From: a virus
Strand: one strand, 5' to 3'
Virus record (IMG/VR): IMGVR_UViG_3300047160_006886
Coordinates: 32,001-96,000 of that record
DNA length: 64,000 bases
Shown: one piece after another, positions 6,305-61,227 of the stretch
Position numbering within the stretch: the first letter of the stretch is position 1
Layout: every line of letters begins with the position of its first letter
Program-made: the position numbers and the translations under genes
The notes under the pieces: generated by a model
What the model was told of the DNA's origin: nothing
What the model saw: the letters and a program-made list of their open reading frames with translations, nothing else
Databases searched by the model: none

Positions 6305-9300
6305 TCACTGCATCTCCTCCTCCATCATATCGGCGACCTCGGCTATCCGGTCGTCGTCGTCGTCGTCGTTGCTCCTTCTGTTATCGACGCCTCGGTACCG
6401 ATTCTCTGTGTCCTCATCAGCCTCTTCATCCTCCTTTTGTTCCTTCGCCTCGCCCTCATCCTCATCACCCGACTCGGCTTTAGCTTCCTTCCTTGCCATT
6501 CCAGCTTCGGCGTCGGGAGACTGCTGCCCTCCATCCCCCCTGCCGCCTTGGCCATCACCGCCGCCCTCTCCTCCTTGCTGCTGTCCGTCGAGATTGGTGT
6601 CGCCGCCGAATCCATCACCGCCTCCTTTGGAAGGGTCCTTGTAACCTTCGGGAGCCTGCGGCACGTAGCCCTGCTCATCCGCCAGGTCTGCTCGCTCTTG
6701 CTCCTCCTCTTCCTGCCGCTTGGTGGCTTCATCAACGACCGCCTGCGACTCTTCCTCGGTCCAACCGAGGATCTTGGTGAAGAACGATTGCTCGCTCATG
6801 ATGTTCGACATCCCACCGGGACCGGCGTAGAGTTGCAGAGTCTGGGCGTTCTGAAATGCGATGCCGGCTTTGTCCTTCTTGCCCAGGGCGTCGACATCCG
6901 GCCACTCGATGCGGTAGCCGCCAGTGGCGACCTCGATCTGCTTGTCCTTGGTGCCCTTGGTCGCCTTGCCATTATCCTTTCCGTTCCCGTTCCCGCCGTT
7001 GCCGCTGTCATCATCGTCATCATCACCCTGATTTCCGACGAAGCGGTTCCTGGCGGCCTGCTTCTCGTAGACCATGTCGCGGATGGCTGCTGCCGTCGCG
7101 GTCTTCTTCTCACCGGATGGCGCGGTCAGTTCGTAGTGGGTGACCCACTTGCCCTCGTGCGGTATCGACTGTCCCATACCGAGCTTGTAGCCCATCTGCT
7201 TGAGTGCTGCCTGAACCTGCGGCAAGTTGGCCTTCCTCTTGTTCTTCGGCAGTTTAACTGAGTGAGTGCCCCCGCCATCGGCGAAGCGGCCGGCTTCATC
7301 TCGCGGCTGGTCCTCATCATAGTTGAAGGCGGGTACTGGCTGGCCAGGCTTGACCAGCAGGAAGTTCTTGACCAGCCGTCCGGTCGCCTGATCCCGACGG
7401 ATGACCTGTCGCTTGATCTTAAAGCCCTGCCGCAGGAGGTTCTGAACCTGCTCCTTCTGGCTCTCCTTAGGCTCGGGCAACACGCCGATCTGGATGAGCC
7501 GGTCGATGAGAGGGCAGATGATCTTCGGCGTGATGTAATTCTGCTGCCGCTCGGCCTTCCGCTTGTTCCAGGCTTCGTCGTCCTGGCTGCTGGCCAGTTC
7601 GCCTCGCTCCGAGCCCTTAAAGACACGAATCGGACAGCCAATCTTGATGCAGATCGCTTCGATGCAGGCATTTAAGTGCGGGGTCGGATCGACGACTGAT
7701 GGCGGCAGGGTCTTGGCCGACATGCCCATCAGCACGAGATATCGCTGGAGGCGGGCCTTGTAATCGACCATCATCTGGCGAATGCTCGGCTCGTCGATGA
7801 GCACATCGCCGCCCAGAGTTGGAGCGGTCTCCAGGCTGATAGACGGGAAGCAGCTTTGCCAGTAGCCCTCGGCGCCGGCACCGCGGACCTTCCTACGGTC
7901 AAGCACCTCAGGTAGGACCTGCTTCAATCGCGGGAAGCCGAAGATCTCCGAGTTGAGGAGGTTGTCGGCGATGTGGATGACCCTTGACCAATGCACGTAG
8001 ACAGTAGCCAGGGGTAGACCCACACCAGAATGAGGCTGGCGAGGATCATTAAGGGTAACCCGATACATAACAGGCAGACCGAATCGCGGGTTGCGGATGT
8101 TCCACTCATACCTCACCACCTGCACTAGGTCTTCTGAGAAACAGCGGAGGAAGACGAGTCGCCGCTTCTTCTTGGCCGGCTTGTCGGCGAAGCTCTCCGA
8201 GGGGCCGAACTGGACGCCGAAGTATTGCTGGTCAGTTCCACTGAGAGAAGGAGCAATTTCTCCGATAGGAGCCGGCATGCCGAGGCCGAATCCTTGACTG
8301 TACTGTCGGTCAGTTCCCTGGATGAACGGACCATCGCCCGGATATCCCGCACTCCGACCAAGATACGGGTCAATATCCGGCGTAGTTTTGTTTTCGACAC
8401 GCCCGCTGAGTGTTTCAGCCCCACCTCGATCAGAGCCAGCGACTCGTCGTCGGGCCTGAAGGGACTCGATGATCTTGACGTTGTTCTCATGGTTGGTAAC
8501 AAGTTGTCCTCCTCGCTTGTTGACGATGATGCGGCCGCGGTCGGTCAGGACGCAGGCTTGAGTCTGACGGTCCCACTTCCAGAGACCATCCCGCTTCAAG
8601 CTCTCCGCTTCCCGCTCCTCGACCCAGGGATCATAATTGAAAGTCGAGTCCTCGCGGTCGGTGACATCGAGCTGACCGATCTCTCTCGTCTCGCCGTTCT
8701 CCCACGTGGAGATCGGGATCACCTTTCTGTTATCGATGATGGCAATCTGCTCATTATCAGCCAGCTCCGCCGCCGACGGTGGATGATCGGGCAGGACCTC
8801 CTGGCAAGAGACCCACTCCAGCTGCCTCGTCTTGAGGTTGCGGACCTGGACGCGGGTATTGGCGATGACCTCAACACCATCGACCGGGTCCTGCAGATTC
8901 TTGCCATCGTCGAGACCGAGGAGGATGATGCCGAACTGGCCAATGCCTGAAGTGATATCCGCTCGAAGGATGTGCTCCCAGATCGGTGCACCCTGCTCTT
9001 CGGCATGCCACGAGCTGCCCGACATATTGACCTGATTAGCAGTGTCATCCCATGCCTCCTCAAACTCGGTCGCCTCGTCGGAATGCTCAGACTCGTAGAT
9101 GGTCGGAGCACCCTGGAAGCACTCCTTGGGCATCACCTCGACCACCCTGGCGGCGATGGCGTCCTGGTCGTAGAGGGAACGATAGAATTGCGGGGTCATC
9201 TCCTCCGGCGACGGCCAGCCGCACTCCTCGCGGATCATGTGACCCCGCTCGAAGAAGCGGTTGAAGAACTCGCTCCGGGAGGTGACGACCTGGTTGATGA

Positions 9301-9673
9301 CACCGTCCATGTTGGCGATGAACCGCTCCATGTCTTCGCGAGTCGGTGGCGTGCCCTGGAAGGTCCGCCGCAGATCACTCGGATCGAAGCCGTGAGCGTT
9401 GAAGGCAGGTCCGTTTTGACCATTGCCATTGCCGAATGGTGGAGGTGGGGGTGGGGGAGATGATCCGCCGAAGCCCCTCCACTCAGGAGGTGGAGATGCT
9501 CCGCCAGAGCCGGCTCCATCCGGCGGAGGAGAAGGTGGGGGTGAGCCGCCCCCGGTATTGCCAGTGGGGGGACTGCCTCCACCCGGAGTCTGTTCGTGCG
9601 TCTCTCCGGAAGAGTTGCCGACCGGCGGCTCTCCAGAATTGGTCGTCGGTGTTCTTCTTCGCTGCCTCGCCAT
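6305..9673 (-). CDS. Portal protein (DUF1073-like) with long insertions
   Basis: IAARVVE, SGIGQFGIILLG, PRFGLPVMY, VHWSRVIH, GCPIRVFKGSERGELASSQD, PLIDRLIQIGVLP and YRIEWPD motifs; downstream of TerL. Confidence 0.85.
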   Translation of the reverse strand: MARQRRRTPTTNSGEPPVGNSSGETHEQTPGGGSPPTGNTGGGSPPPSPPPDGAGSGGASPPPEWRGFGGSSPPPPPPPFGNGNGQNGPAFNAHGFDPSDLRRTFQGTPPTREDMERFIANMDGVINQVVTSRSEFFNRFFERGHMIREECGWPSPEEMTPQFYRSLYDQDAIAARVVEVMPKECFQGAPTIYESEHSDEATEFEEAWDDTANQVNMSGSSWHAEEQGAPIWEHILRADITSGIGQFGIILLGLDDGKNLQDPVDGVEVIANTRVQVRNLKTRQLEWVSCQEVLPDHPPSAAELADNEQIAIIDNRKVIPISTWENGETREIGQLDVTDREDSTFNYDPWVEEREAESLKRDGLWKWDRQTQACVLTDRGRIIVNKRGGQLVTNHENNVKIIESLQARRRVAGSDRGGAETLSGRVENKTTPDIDPYLGRSAGYPGDGPFIQGTDRQYSQGFGLGMPAPIGEIAPSLSGTDQQYFGVQFGPSESFADKPAKKKRRLVFLRCFSEDLVQVVRYEWNIRNPRFGLPVMYRVTLNDPRQPHSGVGLPLATVYVHWSRVIHIADNLLNSEIFGFPRLKQVLPEVLDRRKVRGAGAEGYWQSCFPSISLETAPTLGGDVLIDEPSIRQMMVDYKARLQRYLVLMGMSAKTLPPSVVDPTPHLNACIEAICIKIGCPIRVFKGSERGELASSQDDEAWNKRKAERQQNYITPKIICPLIDRLIQIGVLPEPKESQKEQVQNLLRQGFKIKRQVIRRDQATGRLVKNFLLVKPGQPVPAFNYDEDQPRDEAGRFADGGGTHSVKLPKNKRKANLPQVQAALKQMGYKLGMGQSIPHEGKWVTHYELTAPSGEKKTATAAAIRDMVYEKQAARNRFVGNQGDDDDDDSGNGGNGNGKDNGKATKGTKDKQIEVATGGYRIEWPDVDALGKKDKAGIAFQNAQTLQLYAGPGGMSNIMSEQSFFTKILGWTEEESQAVVDEATKRQEEEEQERADLADEQGYVPQAPEGYKDPSKGGGDGFGGDTNLDGQQQGGEGGGDGQGGRGDGGQQSPDAEAGMARKEAKAESGDEDEGEAKEQKEDEEADEDTENRYRGVDNRRSNDDDDDDRIAEVADMMEEEMQ

Positions 9674-9926
9674 CAGCGTCTTAAGCCCTTCCTTGCCAAG
9701 GGAGGTTTCTTCTTCTGCTTCGCCTCTCGCTCCTTCTCTGCGATCATATCCTGAACCTTCTCCCGCGGGTTGAACATGAGGATCGCCTGCGGCAGCAGGT
9801 TCGGATTGAACTTCGCCAAGTGGAACAAGTTCACCACCTCCAGCTCGGTCATGTAGAAGCCGTCGAGCAGCTTCTCGGCGACCGCCCGCTCCTTCTCCGT
9901 CAATGAGTCAAGGATCGATGGCTTCT

Positions 9927-10208
9927 TCACTTCACCCGCTCTCCTCGCTCCAGGCCAGCTGCCCTTGCCGCCTGCCACCACTCCGGCCGCAGGTGCAGAC
10001 GGTTGGTCATCACTCTCCGGTCGAGCCACTCGTTGCAGTAGCCGCAGCACTGGCGATGGTCGCGGAGCCTCCGGATGTCATCATCGGTCTCGCTGCCGGG
10101 GGCCATCGCCAGGATGAAGTCGCGGAACTCGTCACAGCTCACCGTCGTCTCCCTCTGCTGCTGCTTGTGCCGGCCAGAGCCGGCTGGATTGTCGGCAATG
10201 GGGTCCAC
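9927..10208 (-). CDS. zf-HC2 (anti-sigma-type) zinc-finger protein
   Basis: SCDEF...HRQCCGYC fits C-x(n)-HxxxCxxC. Confidence 0.55.
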   Translation of the reverse strand: MDPIADNPAGSGRHKQQQRETTVSCDEFRDFILAMAPGSETDDDIRRLRDHRQCCGYCNEWLDRRVMTNRLHLRPEWWQAARAAGLERGERVK

Positions 10209-10385
10209 TTACGACTGAGCACGCTTCACCTCCTCCTCGCGAACTATCCTAGTCCCCTCCGGCAGCACGCCTTCGGCCACCAGCCGGTCCAGGAACGGCT
10301 GCAGCACCTTCTCATCCCATATCCTCTGCCACTGCTGCCGACGCTCCTCATCAAGCTTGTGCATCAGAGTCGATAATAGCTCCAT
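10209..10385 (-). CDS. 58-aa protein resembling the portal C-terminal segment
   Basis: Hand translation: MELLSTLMHKLDEERRQQWQRIWDEKVLQPFLDRLVAEGVLPEGTRIVREEEVKRAQS. Confidence 0.6.
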   Translation of the reverse strand: MELLSTLMHKLDEERRQQWQRIWDEKVLQPFLDRLVAEGVLPEGTRIVREEEVKRAQS

Positions 10386-10441: not shown

Positions 10442-10657
10442 TCACCGGCCGAGCCGTCTCATCGCTTCGCGGAACGCCTGCTGGCCGGAGTAGTCGGCCC
10501 CGCCCTTTGACAGGAACTCAAACTCGGCCTGGGCACGCTCCTCCGGCGTCTGGTCCTTGCCGTAGGTGCCGACGATGATCTTCTTCCGCTCGGTCGAGAT
10601 GCCAAGCCGGTGCCGGAGGTCATCGAGCAGCTCATTGTCGCGTTGTGGTTCGTTCAT
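10442..10657 (-). CDS. Hypothetical protein
   Basis: GGAG RBS; overlaps the upstream stop. Confidence 0.55.
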   Translation of the reverse strand: MNEPQRDNELLDDLRHRLGISTERKKIIVGTYGKDQTPEERAQAEFEFLSKGGADYSGQQAFREAMRRLGR

Positions 10658-11013
10658 AAAAACTCCCTGCCACGTCGAGGCGGTGATTGCTGTGGCTGGT
10701 TCATGGCGGAGCTACCCCTCTCGCCGCAAGCTATCACGCCGTCCTTGAAACGCTGGCACAGCGTGCCGCTGCTCGTCATGCCGACCTCGTAAGGCGGGTC
10801 CTTCGGCGCATCCAGCCGCTTCTCCTCTTCCTGCTTGCCCTCGAAGGTATCCTTCGGCACTCCCATCCGCTGCTGGATCTCGTAGAGAGTCAATCTTTCG
10901 ACCTCGCGAAGAGCCAACCTGATGACAGCTTCCGCATGGGTCGGCTTATCCTTCTGCAGAAGCTCCAGGGCGATATTCAGTTTGCCGATCAGATAGTCTT
11001 CCATCATCGTCAT
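10654..11013 (-). CDS. Hypothetical protein; N-terminus paralogous to 60858..61049
   Basis: EDYLIGKLNIAL...AVIRLALREVERL vs EQFLVGRLRAAL...DSIRMALSEVKRI. Confidence 0.6.
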   Translation of the reverse strand: MTMMEDYLIGKLNIALELLQKDKPTHAEAVIRLALREVERLTLYEIQQRMGVPKDTFEGKQEEEKRLDAPKDPPYEVGMTSSGTLCQRFKDGVIACGERGSSAMNQPQQSPPRRGREFL

Positions 11014-16263: not shown

Positions 16264-17910
16264 TCACCTCTGAATCGATCCTACCATATCGGAAGAAAAT
16301 CTCGGCTGAGCGTGGGGACCGGCGACCACCTTCCTCGGCTCGTGCAGCATGCCCCAACAAGCAAGGACGAAGGCGTCTGCCTCGTCAGGAGAGCAGCCGA
16401 GGATCTCGGTCAGCGTCTTCTCCCTGGAGTCGGGGTCCTTCTTGTTCTTGGCTGGCAGGTACAGCCTGCCTTCGCCGTCTCTCAACCTGGGAATGCCGGC
16501 GAGCTGACGACTCAGCTCCCAATACGGGTCTCCCCGCCGTCCTCGCGGCAGTCCGAATCCTCGCGGGTTGATGGAAGGGTCGAAGAGCATCGAGGCTTCC
16601 CCGTACATCTCTGCCCTGCGATTGACGTAGACGTAGCGATCCTCCCTCATCTCCAGGCGGGTGGCGAAGGGAACCTTGCTGGTGCCCCGCCTGATGTCAG
16701 CCAAGATACCCTCGCCGAAGGCCACCGTCCGCACCTCGTAGCCTTGAGCCCTGAGGCGATCCGCATGCTGCTTCCCTCCACCACCACGGTCTAAGAGCAC
16801 GTTCTGCCAGTCCTCTCGCTTCTGCGGACTCAACCACCGCTTGGCGAAGGCGATGATGTCGCCGGTCACCTCACTCGTGTCCGGAGTCTTGCGAGACTCG
16901 ACCTCGATCACGCCTAGCTCGTCCACCGCGACCATCGCAGTGTTTGCTGAGCCCTCGCCAGGGTCAACTCCAACTGCTCTAGCCTTTCGATGACTCCGCG
17001 AAGCATTCTGCGGAAGCTCCTCAGCTCTCGTGAGCCAATCTTGGGAGAAGAGCTTGTTCTCTGGGCCTTCGTAGAACTCTGCCTTGTGCGCGACCGAGAT
17101 CCACTCCGGGTCGTCGGCCCTGGTCTCTTGTTCTTCACGGTATCTGCTCCAGCTCTTGACTCCAGGCACCAGGATCTCGTCGGTCGGCTCGACGCCAGCA
17201 GCGATCTGAGATCGGGCGTACCTCACGTTCGGGGAGTCCTCGGCGGTCAGGCGGAGGACGTTCCTGAACAGCTTGCCGTCGACGATCCGGTTGCCCTCCT
17301 TGACGGCCCTCCGCCAGAAGTTGTCGCACGGCCAGGTGTTGCCGATGACCAGGATGCGGTCGGCCCACGGAGCGGCGGTGTCCATGTACTCGTCGTTGAC
17401 CGAACTCGCCTCGTCGACGATGAAGAGCGTCCTCGGGATGCCGTCCGAGCTGGCGATGTGGTGGCCTCCCATCGCGGCCATCGAGTCGGCCGAGGCGACC
17501 ATGCCCTTGCAGTAGCTCTTCGGACAGACGCCGTCGCGAGTCACCTTCCTCAGCTCCTGGTGGTTGATGATCAACGGCCCGCCCAGCTTGAAGTCCAACA
17601 CGAACTTGCACGTGCGGATGAAGTTGTTGATCTCCCCCCAGAGCACGCGGAGGTGGTCCTCCTTGGCCGAGGTGGTGATGATGCGGCAGGGATGCCTCGT
17701 CAGGAAGAAACAGAACGCCTCCCAGCCGGCCACGAAGTCCTTGCCCATCTGTTGGCTCGCCGGCACGAAGGTCTGACGGTTGTCGAGGACCGAGAACAGG
17801 ATGTCCTCCTCCTCGGGATAGAACCAGTAGGGAGAGCCGTCTGGCTGCCGGGAGAAGCCGTCCGGGAAGCACAGCTTGGCGAACTCGACTGGGTCGATCT
17901 GCTGGCTCAT
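16264..17910 (-). CDS. terL: Terminase large subunit
   Basis: Walker A-like ASQQMGKDF, Walker B FIVDEAS, nuclease GVDPGEG and SPDEADA; start MSQQID behind GAGG. Confidence 0.9.
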   Translation of the reverse strand: MSQQIDPVEFAKLCFPDGFSRQPDGSPYWFYPEEEDILFSVLDNRQTFVPASQQMGKDFVAGWEAFCFFLTRHPCRIITTSAKEDHLRVLWGEINNFIRTCKFVLDFKLGGPLIINHQELRKVTRDGVCPKSYCKGMVASADSMAAMGGHHIASSDGIPRTLFIVDEASSVNDEYMDTAAPWADRILVIGNTWPCDNFWRRAVKEGNRIVDGKLFRNVLRLTAEDSPNVRYARSQIAAGVEPTDEILVPGVKSWSRYREEQETRADDPEWISVAHKAEFYEGPENKLFSQDWLTRAEELPQNASRSHRKARAVGVDPGEGSANTAMVAVDELGVIEVESRKTPDTSEVTGDIIAFAKRWLSPQKREDWQNVLLDRGGGGKQHADRLRAQGYEVRTVAFGEGILADIRRGTSKVPFATRLEMREDRYVYVNRRAEMYGEASMLFDPSINPRGFGLPRGRRGDPYWELSRQLAGIPRLRDGEGRLYLPAKNKKDPDSREKTLTEILGCSPDEADAFVLACWGMLHEPRKVVAGPHAQPRFSSDMVGSIQR

Positions 17911-18206
17911 TTGACCTCTCCGGTCACCATGTCGACGCCGCTCTCGATCTCCGGTACCAAGCCGACCTCGGGATCGACGAGAGAAGCGGCCTTGAGGCGG
18001 CGACGAGACTCCAAAGTCTTCTCCCGCTCCTCGGCCCTCTGCTCCGGCGTCGCCGCCTCGTGCATCGCCTTGAGCATCGGAATGAACTCGTTCTTGCACC
18101 GCTGGCAGCTCTGAGCGTGCCGGATCAAGGCTGCCAATTCAGACGGAGTCTCCAGAGGGGCATCGGCAGGACGGTTGATAAAAGCTCGCAGTTGATCGCA
18201 GGTCAT
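17907..18206 (-). CDS. zf-HC2 zinc-finger protein
   Basis: MTCDQL...HAQSCQRC; GGAGG RBS. Confidence 0.6.
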   Translation of the reverse strand: MTCDQLRAFINRPADAPLETPSELAALIRHAQSCQRCKNEFIPMLKAMHEAATPEQRAEEREKTLESRRRLKAASLVDPEVGLVPEIESGVDMVTGEVK

Positions 18207-42884: not shown

Positions 42885-45431
42885 ATGAAAGCCAAAGACA
42901 TCAAGCAAGGCCACCACTACGAAACGAAGATCGGCGGCAAGCTGACAGTCGTAAAAGTAGATCGGATCAACGAGGAGCGAGAGCCAACGCTGGGCACCAA
43001 CCGCTCCCGGAAGACCGGGAAGATGACTTTTGAGGTCACCAACCTCTCAACCGGCCGCAAGACCACGTTCCGGTCGGCGGCGAAGTTCCGTCGGGAGGCC
43101 ACCCCCGGCAGCCTCGTCATGGAGCATGAAAACAAACGCATCAAGAGATTGCAGGAGCAAGTTGCCGAGAAGGTCATCCGCCCGACCATCGACAAGCTAG
43201 TCGAGCAAGGAGTCCTGCCGAAGCCCACCGGCGAGGTAAAGATCGAGTACCCCAATGTCCCTTTCGCCGAGCGGGAGGCGAGACCCCCAGCGAAATCGTC
43301 GAGCGACACTCCAGGCTCCACGGCACGCTCCAGCCGCTCGACCCCACCTTCGTCCGGAACTCAGTCGACAGCAAGGACAACCGCTGCTGGTGTGAACATT
43401 GCTCAGCCGCACGGCAGCCGAGAGAATCCCGGCAGCAGCGACGAGATCGAGAGCACCGAGAACAGCTCCAGCGAGGCTACCGAATCCTCGCCGGCGAGGC
43501 CGCTGACCCACCAGCAGGTCAAGGCGATATTCGACGCGGTGGACAAGACCGAGTTGCTCAAGAAGGTCCGCTCGACAAACGATCCGACTCCCCTCTCGCT
43601 TCAGCAGTGCCAGGAGGTTGTGATGAGCGAACAGGAGGAGGTGCTCAAGATCATGAGAGAGACCAGGGGCAAGCCGGAGTTGCGAGACAAGAAGCTGCGG
43701 GAGCTGGCCAACCGACACAACCGTGGTGGAAGGAGATCGCAGACCAACACGCTGAGTGCTCCCGACGAAGCCTCAAGCCACCACACAGGACTGACTTCCG
43801 AAACATCTCCTTTGACCCTTCCCTCGTCACCGGCAGATGCAGATGTCGAGCCTGCCGGGAAGGAGTCAACAACGGCTACCGACCCAGCATCACAGCAACC
43901 CCAACTGACCCCGACGAGGGAGAAGGATGCCCCGGTAGTTGAGAACCTGAAGGAGACGCTCCAGCGGGCAATCAACCAGGTGACCGAGACGATTCCTGAA
44001 GCCGCCGGTCTCCAGGGCGATCAGCCGCAGGCATTCATCGACCTGACTACTAAGATCAGCGATGGCAAGCGGGTCGTGGTGCTGTGTGGCTTCGCCGGCA
44101 CGGGCAAGACCGTGCTGCTGACTCGGATCGCCCGCTGGGCCAAGCGGCAGAAGTACGATGTGAAAATCGCCGCCCCGACCCACAAAGCAGCATCGGTCAT
44201 TTCTCAGAAACTCGCTTCGTCCGGACCCGGTGGAACCGACATCGAGGTCCGCACGATTCATTCGATGCTCGGCTTGAGGCTGGAGCCGGATTACGAGTCC
44301 GACTCCGGCGGTCACATCCTGACTGCCCAGGACAGCAAGTCCAAGGTGAAGACCGGCCTGGTGATTTGTGACGAAGCGTCGATGGTCGGTGAAGTCCTCA
44401 AAGACCACATCGAGAAGTCGAGCAGCGACATCATCTGGGTATTCGTAGGGGATTTAGCTCAGCTCCCGCCGGTCGGCGAGAGCATCAGCGAACTCCTGGA
44501 CGAGCCGGATGCGGTGCTGGAGAACGTGCTCCGCCAGGCCCAGGGATCGGAGATCCTGAACCTGGCGACCCGCATCCGCAAGGGTGACATGAGCATGAAG
44601 CACAAGAAGGGCAAGGACGTATTCGAGGTCGCCGATGCCGAGCAGCTGTTCCAGGCCGCTCTGACCAAGTTCCGGGACCCGGCCTACCAGAAAGACCCGT
44701 CGTTCGCACGGATGCTGGTCTTCAAGAACGCAAGGCGGCAGGCCATCAACGCCCGGATGCGAGACCTGCTGGTCGGCTCCCAGCAGCCTTATGAGCCGGG
44801 CGAGTGGCTGGTCATGTACCAGCAGTTCGCTCCGGAGAAGTCGCGGCTCAATCTCATGGCCGAGGAGGCGAAGAAGTTTCCGAAGGGCGACCGCAGACGC
44901 GGCCCGGCCTGGAAGCGGTTCTTCGACTACCAGCGGCAGCTCGGCGAGTCGGTGTCAATGCTCCATGTCAGCGAGGAGGTCCGCGTGGTAGCGGTCTCCG
45001 AACGGGATGTCGATATCGACGACTACACATTCGGCGTCTGGAGCCTGACCGTCCGGACCAAGGACGACCAGGAATACGTCCTGCCGGTACTCAAGGACGA
45101 GGAGCGGGAGCGTCACTCGAAGGCCCTGGCGACCATCATGGCCAAGGCCCAGGAATATCGAGCCGAGCGGGATGAGTGCCCGAAGGGGTCGCCTGACTGG
45201 ATTGATTGGGACGAGAAGCGGAAGAAGGAGTGGGGCCGCTATTTCGGCATGGAGTCCACGTTCGCTCAAGTGGACTACTGCTACTGCATGACCACCCACA
45301 AGAGCCAGGGGTCCACGTTCGATCATGTGTTCGTCGATGTCCCCGACTTGATGTCGAGCGGCGGCATGCAACAACGAATCCTTTACACGTCGGTTACACG
45401 ACCGGCGAAAAGCCTGACCTTTTACAAGTGA
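42885..45431 (+). CDS. Dda/RecD-like SF1B helicase with long N-terminal extension
   Basis: GFAGTGKT, AAPTHKAA, TIHS, CDEASM, GDLAQLPPV, THKSQGSTF, YTSVTR. Confidence 0.9.
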   Translation: MKAKDIKQGHHYETKIGGKLTVVKVDRINEEREPTLGTNRSRKTGKMTFEVTNLSTGRKTTFRSAAKFRREATPGSLVMEHENKRIKRLQEQVAEKVIRPTIDKLVEQGVLPKPTGEVKIEYPNVPFAEREARPPAKSSSDTPGSTARSSRSTPPSSGTQSTARTTAAGVNIAQPHGSRENPGSSDEIESTENSSSEATESSPARPLTHQQVKAIFDAVDKTELLKKVRSTNDPTPLSLQQCQEVVMSEQEEVLKIMRETRGKPELRDKKLRELANRHNRGGRRSQTNTLSAPDEASSHHTGLTSETSPLTLPSSPADADVEPAGKESTTATDPASQQPQLTPTREKDAPVVENLKETLQRAINQVTETIPEAAGLQGDQPQAFIDLTTKISDGKRVVVLCGFAGTGKTVLLTRIARWAKRQKYDVKIAAPTHKAASVISQKLASSGPGGTDIEVRTIHSMLGLRLEPDYESDSGGHILTAQDSKSKVKTGLVICDEASMVGEVLKDHIEKSSSDIIWVFVGDLAQLPPVGESISELLDEPDAVLENVLRQAQGSEILNLATRIRKGDMSMKHKKGKDVFEVADAEQLFQAALTKFRDPAYQKDPSFARMLVFKNARRQAINARMRDLLVGSQQPYEPGEWLVMYQQFAPEKSRLNLMAEEAKKFPKGDRRRGPAWKRFFDYQRQLGESVSMLHVSEEVRVVAVSERDVDIDDYTFGVWSLTVRTKDDQEYVLPVLKDEERERHSKALATIMAKAQEYRAERDECPKGSPDWIDWDEKRKKEWGRYFGMESTFAQVDYCYCMTTHKSQGSTFDHVFVDVPDLMSSGGMQQRILYTSVTRPAKSLTFYK

Positions 45432-60282: not shown

Positions 60283-60861
60283 TCATCCCCACTGTTCCGC
60301 CATTGCCTTGGCGATCCCTTCATAGGTGATGGAACGCAACCTCTCGCGCATTCCCTTCAGGTTTGGCATGGGGGGCATCCTGAAGACCCTCTGTTGTCGG
60401 ACTTCAACCACGTTCGTGGGTTCCAGTAACGGCAATCCCTTTAGCCACAAGCAGGTGCCCTTGCTCTCTGCATGCCCGTACTGCCAAGGGTGAATGATCT
60501 GGTCATACCTTCTGCCAATGCCTTTCAAAGCATATTTATGAGGGATCGGGTTCTCGACAACCACTCTCGGAGAGTTTGCATCGAGACATTGCTTGAAGAA
60601 CTCCACGGCCTTGTTCAGGCATTCCCACCTGTCCCTGTTCGAGCTTTTCAACCATCTCACTCCGGAGTTGCACAAGTAAGTGCATGGTGGATGAGCGATG
60701 ACCAAGTCCCAACGTTCGGTCAGCAAGGATCGCACATCTCCGCGAATGTGGTAGGTCTCATCCTCGCTCGCGAAAAAGTCACAGGACCAAGCATCATGCT
60801 TCAATACCCGAAAAGCGTTCCGTACTCGGCCAGAAAACTCGCAAGCCACCAAGACCTTCAT
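60283..60861 (-). CDS. Minimal C5-cytosine methyltransferase-like protein
   Basis: MKVLVACEFSG, IAHPPCTYL, VENP, TCLWLKGLP, RS.TY.GIA.AMAEQWG. Confidence 0.8.
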   Translation of the reverse strand: MKVLVACEFSGRVRNAFRVLKHDAWSCDFFASEDETYHIRGDVRSLLTERWDLVIAHPPCTYLCNSGVRWLKSSNRDRWECLNKAVEFFKQCLDANSPRVVVENPIPHKYALKGIGRRYDQIIHPWQYGHAESKGTCLWLKGLPLLEPTNVVEVRQQRVFRMPPMPNLKGMRERLRSITYEGIAKAMAEQWG

Positions 60862-61049
60862 ACATCGATCCCCATCTGACTGAGTCTGTCCCGCTCCCGA
60901 TTGATCAGCTCTTCTCTCTTGGCGTTGATCCTCTTGACCTCCGAGAGGGCCATCCGGATGGAATCCCCCGCCCGCTCGGGGTCTTCGAGTTCGAGGTGGT
61001 AGAGGGCGGCCCTCAGCCTGCCGACTAGGAATTGCTCCAGAGTAGTCAT
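60858..61049 (-). CDS. Hypothetical protein
   Basis: Paralogue of the 10654..11013 N-terminus. Confidence 0.6.
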   Translation of the reverse strand: MTTLEQFLVGRLRAALYHLELEDPERAGDSIRMALSEVKRINAKREELINRERDRLSQMGIDV

Positions 61050-61054
61050 GATCT

Positions 61055-61227
61055 TTATTCTAACCCCAGATCAGGAAAAACTCCGAAAGAAAAAATCCCG
61101 GTGAAGAACCGAGAAAGCAAATTTCATTTTATTCTATGCTAGAATAGGGTGGGATAGACTCTTTCTCTCTTCTTCTCTCTCTTCTTCTTTTAGTTAAAGT
61201 AAAGAGCAAATGCATCAAGCGAACATT
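61055..61227 (-). promoter_or_regulatory. AT-rich promoter block, second copy
   Basis: TAGAAT on minus strand near 61057-61062; attcta-tgc-tagaat palindrome. Confidence 0.5.

Follow-up and report, generated by a model that had tools for sequence, protein, structure and literature searches.

The DNA analysed here, called the window below, is a stretch of 64,000 nucleotides (bases 32001–96000 of a 112-kb IMG/VR virus record) from an uncultured phage, and the record is estimated to be 93% complete. On the minus strand of the window, a run of genes extends from the large terminase to the portal gene (Table 1), and within this run, two small genes (g93 and g85) upstream of the portal gene, lies g58, a mini-gene of 58 aa. 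The preliminary description had read an ORF at this place and had called it tightly packed, and on both counts it was right: the ORF runs from ATG to TAA on the minus strand, its TAA abuts the GTG of g93, and a 56-nt spacer lies 5′ of its ATG. This spacer includes a purine-rich stretch that would be weak as a ribosome-binding stretch. The likely GTG of g85 overlaps the stop of g93 as GTGA, and the stop of g85 overlaps the portal ATG as TGATG, forming a same-strand chain of g58, g93, g85, and portal coupled by their starts and stops. No minus-strand promoter or terminator consensus was found between positions 9500 and 11500. The GC fractions of g58 at the first, second, and third codon positions are 0.69, 0.32, and 0.75, and the same pattern is seen in the portal, the terminase, and the neighbouring small genes. 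Given the gene packing, the codon-position GC, and the lack of a promoter or terminator consensus in the interval searched, we take g58 to be a probable co-transcribed late gene.

Table 1. Coordinates of the features discussed, in positions of the window.
Feature	Position	Strand	Description	Basis
g58, 58-aa mini-gene	10209–10385	-	ATG at 10385, TAA at 10211–10209	ORF and translation
Core shared motif in g58, aa 26–43	10257–10310	-	K-V-L-x-P-F-L-D-R-L-V-x-x-G-V-L-P-E	Alignments and profile matches
g93	9927–10208	-	zf-HC2-like Cys/His motif; GTG start directly after the g58 TAA	
g85	9673–9930	-	Small gene; likely GTG start, longest ORF form 9673–10050	
Portal gene	6305–9673	-	1122 aa, with large insertions; PF06381 / phrog_146	Pfam and PHROG matches; Sf11 portal (9YIN) by sequence and fold
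Portal aa 702–736	7466–7570	-	Most of the long wing helix, ending in GVLPEP; parent-type element of both extra copies	
Portal insertion, aa 737–916	6926–7465	-	About 180 aa, between GVLPEP and the strand G-Y-R-I-E-W-P-D	Split profile match
Second portal insertion	~8170–8870	-	About 230 aa, between aa ~270 and 500	
g71	10442–10657	-	Conserved small gene	tblastn to 6 related loci
g119	10654–11013	-	Small gene	
66-aa ORF	~60861–61070	-	Paralogue of the g119 N-terminus	All-against-all of six-frame ORFs
Large terminase	16264–18099	-	phrog_2	
SF1 (RecD/Dda/PIF1-like) helicase gene	42885–45431	+	848 aa	Pfam AAA_30, AAA_19, UvrD_C_2, PIF1
Helicase aa 1–75	42885–43109	+	Small conserved N-terminal domain	
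Helicase aa 75–125	43107–43259	+	Portal-like helix and strand	BLASTP against g58 and against the own portal

The opposite view, that g58 is not a gene or resembles the portal by chance, is quite improbable, even though the ORF is short, has only the weak purine-rich stretch in front of it, lacks homologues, and lies in a high-GC genome with many spurious ORFs. Its frame-specific GC pattern is that of real genes, its start and stop are packed exactly against its neighbours, and a chance resemblance would have to account for a genome-wide profile E value of 5e-5 or better together with a reciprocal three-way match, both detailed below. The preliminary description would have been refuted by an ORF neither conserved nor translated; the codon-position GC resembles that of the neighbours, and no homologue appeared in the collections searched.

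The genes around g58 differ in how widely they are found. The g93 product carries the pattern C...H-x3-C-x2-C, and its weak match to the anti-sigma factor RsrA (E 0.005) scores 16.9 bits where the cut-off is 62.5. Relatives of g71, which share a conserved C-terminal motif (G-G-A-D-Y-x-G ... A-M-R-R-L), are present in six related phages (L001, L002, L004, L007, L011, and L021), where they lie immediately or almost immediately upstream of the portal. The gap from g71 to the portal in these relatives varies from 13 to 2803 nt and contains unrelated small ORFs, so g58, g93, and g85 occupy a variable insertion spot with g71 as its left edge. Next to g71 lies g119, whose N-terminus (aa 6–47) shares 43% identity with a 66-aa ORF some 50 kb distant (E 1.4e-5); these two form another small-gene paralogue pair in the all-against-all comparison of the six-frame ORFs of the genome.

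The resemblance between g58 and the portal had been noticed at about nt 7466–7570, and the matching stretch is indeed located there, encoding aa 702–736 of the portal. By BLASTP, g58 and the portal of the same genome share 14 of 35 residues, with an E value of 6e-5 for that one comparison. Because a single-comparison E value of this size fails correction for an all-against-all search when taken alone, independent profiles were used. We built a 45-column profile of the segment from 21 related portal loci in IMG/VR, with portal cores 52–66% identical and our own portal left out, and searched it with heuristics off against all 2068 six-frame ORFs of the 112-kb genome. The own portal was retrieved with an E value of 2.3e-27, g58 with 5.2e-5, and a helicase with 1.3e-4, and the next match had an E value of 1.4. 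None of 5000 residue shuffles of g58 reached the real score (20.3 bits, against a maximum of 6.9 bits among the shuffles). The similarity is therefore significant in profile comparison, as the preliminary description had asked of it. A broader profile of 18 foreign portals gives E values of 4.2e-7 for g58 and 9.8e-9 for the helicase, figures that are partly circular because the pattern used to retrieve 10 of the 18 portals had come from the copies.

Several further lines of evidence agree with the profile searches. Searches with the portal, g58, and the helicase are reciprocal, and when all six-frame ORFs of the genome are compared with one another by BLASTP, only 12 pairs fall below an E value of 1e-3, the pair of g58 and the helicase among them. 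The whole of g58 is colinear with a 58-aa window of foreign portals that begins at their conserved E-L-A-S-S-Q-D, and in its core (P-F-L-D-R-L-V-A-E-G-V-L-P-E) 12 of 14 residues are those of the metagenomic portal L077. The suggestion that g58 is a portal-derived peptide is thus upheld by the profile statistics, by a third copy, and by the colinearity with foreign portals. At the same time, g58 has no Pfam or PHROG portal match that would place it in PF06381 or the PHROG portal family, and a full-length portal profile aligns only its positions 524–545 to it. Judged from its sequence, g58 is a fragment copy of a portal and no portal itself, related to the portal wing helix by true descent or by mimicry.

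Two other identities for g58 were considered and rejected. A decayed second portal gene is rejected, as the full-length portal profile matches nothing in the ORFs flanking g58. So is a winged-helix domain: SelB-wing_2 (PF09106) scores 16.3 bits (E 0.011; cut-off 22.3) and ANAPC2 (PF08672) scores 12.3 (cut-off 23), both below threshold, and the AlphaFold2 (AF2) model shows a single long helix instead of three helices plus a wing. This single-sequence model (pLDDT 78.5) consists of a long helix at aa 2–37, a loop (GVLPEG), and a short C-terminal helix at aa 50–56.

The third copy, which the preliminary description had missed and for which every reading has to account, lies inside an SF1 helicase, and when g58 is searched against its own genome, the helicase match is better than the portal match. 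The two are identical at 17 of 47 positions in an ungapped BLASTP alignment that covers aa 5–51 of g58 (E 3e-6), and the helicase segment is identical to the own portal at 17 of 36 positions (E 5e-7). There is also a second match, in which T-G-E-V-K-I-E-Y-P-N-V of the helicase aligns with T-G-G-Y-R-I-E-W-P-D-V at aa 917–927 of the portal. Since the helix and strand pieces are contiguous in many related portals, the helicase holds an uninterrupted helix-plus-strand excerpt, running on into the strand exactly as portals without the insertion do. Over 48 aa it is 48% identical to the portals of loci L062 and L066, and together with the uninterrupted excerpt this settles the homology of the helicase copy to the portal.

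Within the helicase, the copied segment follows a conserved N-terminal domain and precedes a long Ser/Thr/Pro-rich linker. The N-terminal domain (motif V-T-N-L-S-T-G-R-K-T-T-F-R-S-A-A-K-F-R) is covered by no Pfam family, and at least 26 UvrD-type helicases of the protein collection begin with it. In each of these, the domain is followed by a hypervariable linker that is Zn-ribbon-like, acidic, or Ser/Thr/Pro-rich, and the portal excerpt occurs in this one only. In genome-wide profile searches, the remaining virion and cargo proteins of the phage lacked the helix-plus-strand element. The helicase gene and the head genes are about 30 kb apart and on opposite strands.

In portals, the tunnel loop is followed by a wing helix, long or bent, that leads on to the crown. 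This helix is a standard element (PMC7234808, PMC4493910), and it is the part that was copied, together with the next strand in the case of the helicase. The preliminary description had taken the parent stretch for the C-terminal segment of the portal; it is instead an internal element of the 1122-aa protein, as both sequence and fold indicate. An AF2 model of portal aa 100–1050 from a 20-row alignment has a core with pLDDT of 75–88 and inserts of low confidence, and it places a long helix at aa 699–729 (model residues 600–630; pLDDT 81–88), directly after a low-confidence loop that contains the conserved G-E-L-A-S-S-Q-D-D. Searched with Foldseek, the model retrieves the portal fold, with Sf11 first (E 8e-11), then T1 and FCWL1. 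By HMMER, portal aa 503–733 align to the solved Sf11 portal (9YIN), with the wing-helix segment falling at aa ~354–390 of Sf11 and the motif opposite f-v-e-R-L-I-t-f-G-i-v at aa ~380–390.

The insertion of about 180 aa that follows GVLPEP in our portal is absent from many related portals, where the sequence runs on contiguously as GVLPEP-x-G-Y-S-V-E-W-P-D-L. In the AF2 model this insertion contains a small helix-plus-strand domain, and insertion lengths at this site differ widely among related portals. The second insertion of the portal, of about 230 aa, is modelled with low confidence.

Comparison of the three copies shows what was kept and what was changed. Both extra copies retain the near-invariant portal positions P20, D23, R/K24, L25, I/V26, G29, V30, L31, and P32. 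The T-P kink of the portals has become E-K in both, and the residue before the glycine, hydrophobic in portals, is E or Q. Because the copies have polar residues where portals have hydrophobic ones, their product is probably a one-sided amphipathic helix that is not buried, and the pattern as a whole is compatible with a helix that is now exposed on one side and has retained a packing face. The two copies are 40% identical to each other and about 31% identical to portals. The three DNA copies are only moderately alike, with identities mostly at first and second codon positions and differences mostly at third positions, so the duplications are old. An element acting at the DNA level that merely happens to be read in frame is ruled out by the same moderate likeness.

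The preliminary description had proposed a search for recurring free-standing copies, and none were found in relatives, in IMG/VR, or in JGI metagenomes at the sensitivity used. A degenerate DNA pattern matched 8 times in IMG/VR and 11 times in JGI metagenomes; each of these 19 matches was a portal. Searches with tblastn of g58, g93, and g85 into the 21 related portal loci returned the portal motif itself and no extra copy. In five related genomes (66–72 kb, three of them complete), none of which has the helicase, the motif profile matched the portals and, beyond these, had one weak partial match (E 0.007). When proteins of 31–102 aa were searched with the profile, the only match was an 89-aa ORF that reads like a split portal gene. 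This ORF (P0032, on a 17-kb contig) contains a portal stem helix, tunnel loop, and wing helix, and is probably a split or frameshifted portal gene.

Searches with g58 itself were similarly bare. Against a collection of 5.8 billion proteins, g58 found only itself, and neither the IMG/VR and JGI metagenome loci nor the ESM Atlas contained a homologue. A full HMMER pass over 1.8 billion representatives yielded only a WD40 protein and a protein of 57-aa repeats, both with scores inflated by their repeats (~26 bits per repeat). The latter (P0004, 428 aa) is built of 57-aa tandem repeats, each 29% identical to aa 2–43 of g58 (~26 bits); its whole-protein E value of 2.8e-9 is inflated by the repeats, and the repeat length is close to the length of g58. 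Within the collections covered here, g58 is a lineage-specific gene found in one genome only.

On one hand, this distribution is in keeping with an exapted or near-neutral relic. A portal fragment would have been copied both to an insertion hot spot and to the linker of the helicase; the mini-gene would now have little function or a job unrelated to portals, and the shared residues would be a mere remainder of common descent. The presence of g58 in a single genome fits this account, and so do the 0–2.8 kb of unrelated small genes that the same junction holds in relatives, the hypervariability of the linker in 26 related helicases with the insert in one only, and the paralogues that neighbouring small genes also have elsewhere in the genome. 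On the other hand, the copies are old (31–40% amino-acid identity) and have nevertheless kept the near-invariant positions of the portal family, and the g58 ORF is still intact and coupled to its neighbours. We consider such a relic a real but lesser prospect, clearly on the unlikely side.

The explanation that we favour, tentatively and at somewhat less than an even chance, is that g58 is a fragment-type mimic that competes for or modulates wing-helix contacts; most of this confidence belongs to the part that concerns its origin. An excerpt of about 58 codons of the portal gene would have given rise to g58, starting in the last part of the tunnel loop, taking in the long wing helix, and stopping with a vestige of the strand that follows, and a sister copy of the same element would have been built into the hypervariable linker of the SF1 helicase. 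The g58 protein may then reproduce contacts of the wing helix, whether these are made inside one portal subunit, from one subunit to another, or with a shared partner, and may compete with or modulate those contacts while portal is being produced. The copy in the helicase would give that enzyme access to the same contact. Fragments of native proteins are known to inhibit through oligomer interfaces and folding contacts by titrating them (Savinov et al., PMC9245647; FragFold, PMC10769210). This behaviour of fragments, and the probable expression of g58 from the operon of the portal, are our reasons for preferring a fragment-type mimic. A complex prediction of g58 with portal aa 144–1004 gave neither support nor counter-evidence for binding.

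Several observations weigh against the fragment-type mimic. No homologue of g58 exists in any collection searched, and the five related genomes and 21 related loci are without an extra copy. The parent element is internal to the portal fold, and it is not obvious where a folded portal would accommodate another copy. A purely head-assembly role fits poorly with a helicase whose gene has the opposite orientation to the head genes and lies about 30 kb away from them.

Another possibility is that the element is a docking tag that binds a head component (portal, scaffold, or capsid protein) and recruits the helicase and g58 to the procapsid or packaging vertex, whether for encapsidation and co-injection or for coupling DNA processing with packaging. 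Such a tag would suit the position of the element in the helicase, N-terminal to a long flexible linker, and its presence in a gene of the head operon. Related portals, moreover, carry large insertions after GVLPEP, from which it may be inferred that the end of the helix is exposed. The remaining virion and cargo proteins of the phage nonetheless lack the element, the remote, opposite-strand location of the helicase gene counts here too, and capsid-targeting signals are not known to be related to a wing-helix element. A docking tag is an unlikely answer. In its fuller form, the wing-helix element would be a portable docking module by which a helicase of the replication type and a microprotein are both tied to the portal or the procapsid, which we regard as doubtful to the same degree. 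The corollary, in which the helicase would travel inside the head and be injected along with the DNA, or would act at the packaging vertex, and the microprotein would tune or compete for the same site, is equally a long way from probable.

Besides a role as assembly modulator or superinfection inhibitor, the preliminary description had raised an immune role, in which g58 would imitate the portal surface seen by an Avs4-type portal sensor and soak the sensor up. Accessory genes in variable spots are often counter-defence genes, which is in keeping with a decoy. Defence systems that sense portals exist (PMC13017515), and fusions with fragments of essential viral genes have been proposed as decoys in Bodo saltans virus (PMC5871332). 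What was copied, however, is about 35 aa of an internal helix and no folded portal surface; the copy in the helicase would be left unexplained, and nothing in the data points to an immune sensor. We give a decoy only a very slight chance.

Returning to the fragment-type mimic, the closest known element is the wing helix of PF06381 portals (Phage_portal_3 / DUF1073), such as that of Sf11 (9YIN). The copies share its motif (P-x-[IL]-D-[RK]-L-[IV]-x-x-G-V-L-P) and its predicted helical state, and the helicase copy has the following strand too. They differ from these portals in lacking the clip, the stem, the remaining wing, and the crown, and in being polar where portals are hydrophobic. Like dominant-negative fragments and eukaryotic microProteins, g58 is a small protein made of one excerpt from a larger protein of the same genome, its 58 aa being a single element related to the portal and to helicase aa 75–125. 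For dominant-negative fragments inhibition has been measured, whereas the binding of g58, and a role of the excerpt as an interaction surface, are putative. A further parallel is offered by Bodo saltans virus, in which ankyrin-repeat proteins carry fragments of essential viral genes and a decoy role has been proposed for them (PMC5871332). Our phage similarly carries extra copies of fragments of its own essential gene. Bodo saltans virus, however, is a eukaryotic giant virus with ankyrin-repeat fusions, while here one copy is free-standing and the other lies inside a helicase.

Even if the copies do not bind, they would still be a clean example of small genes and enzyme linkers built from pieces of a structural gene. 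If they do bind, the phage would offer a natural instance in which a piece of the portal serves its own virus as a regulatory or targeting peptide, and a helicase would be seen to be physically connected with the machinery of head assembly. Binding would also point to the face of the conserved wing helix that is a functional contact, and this would provide a ready-made peptide for probing portal assembly.
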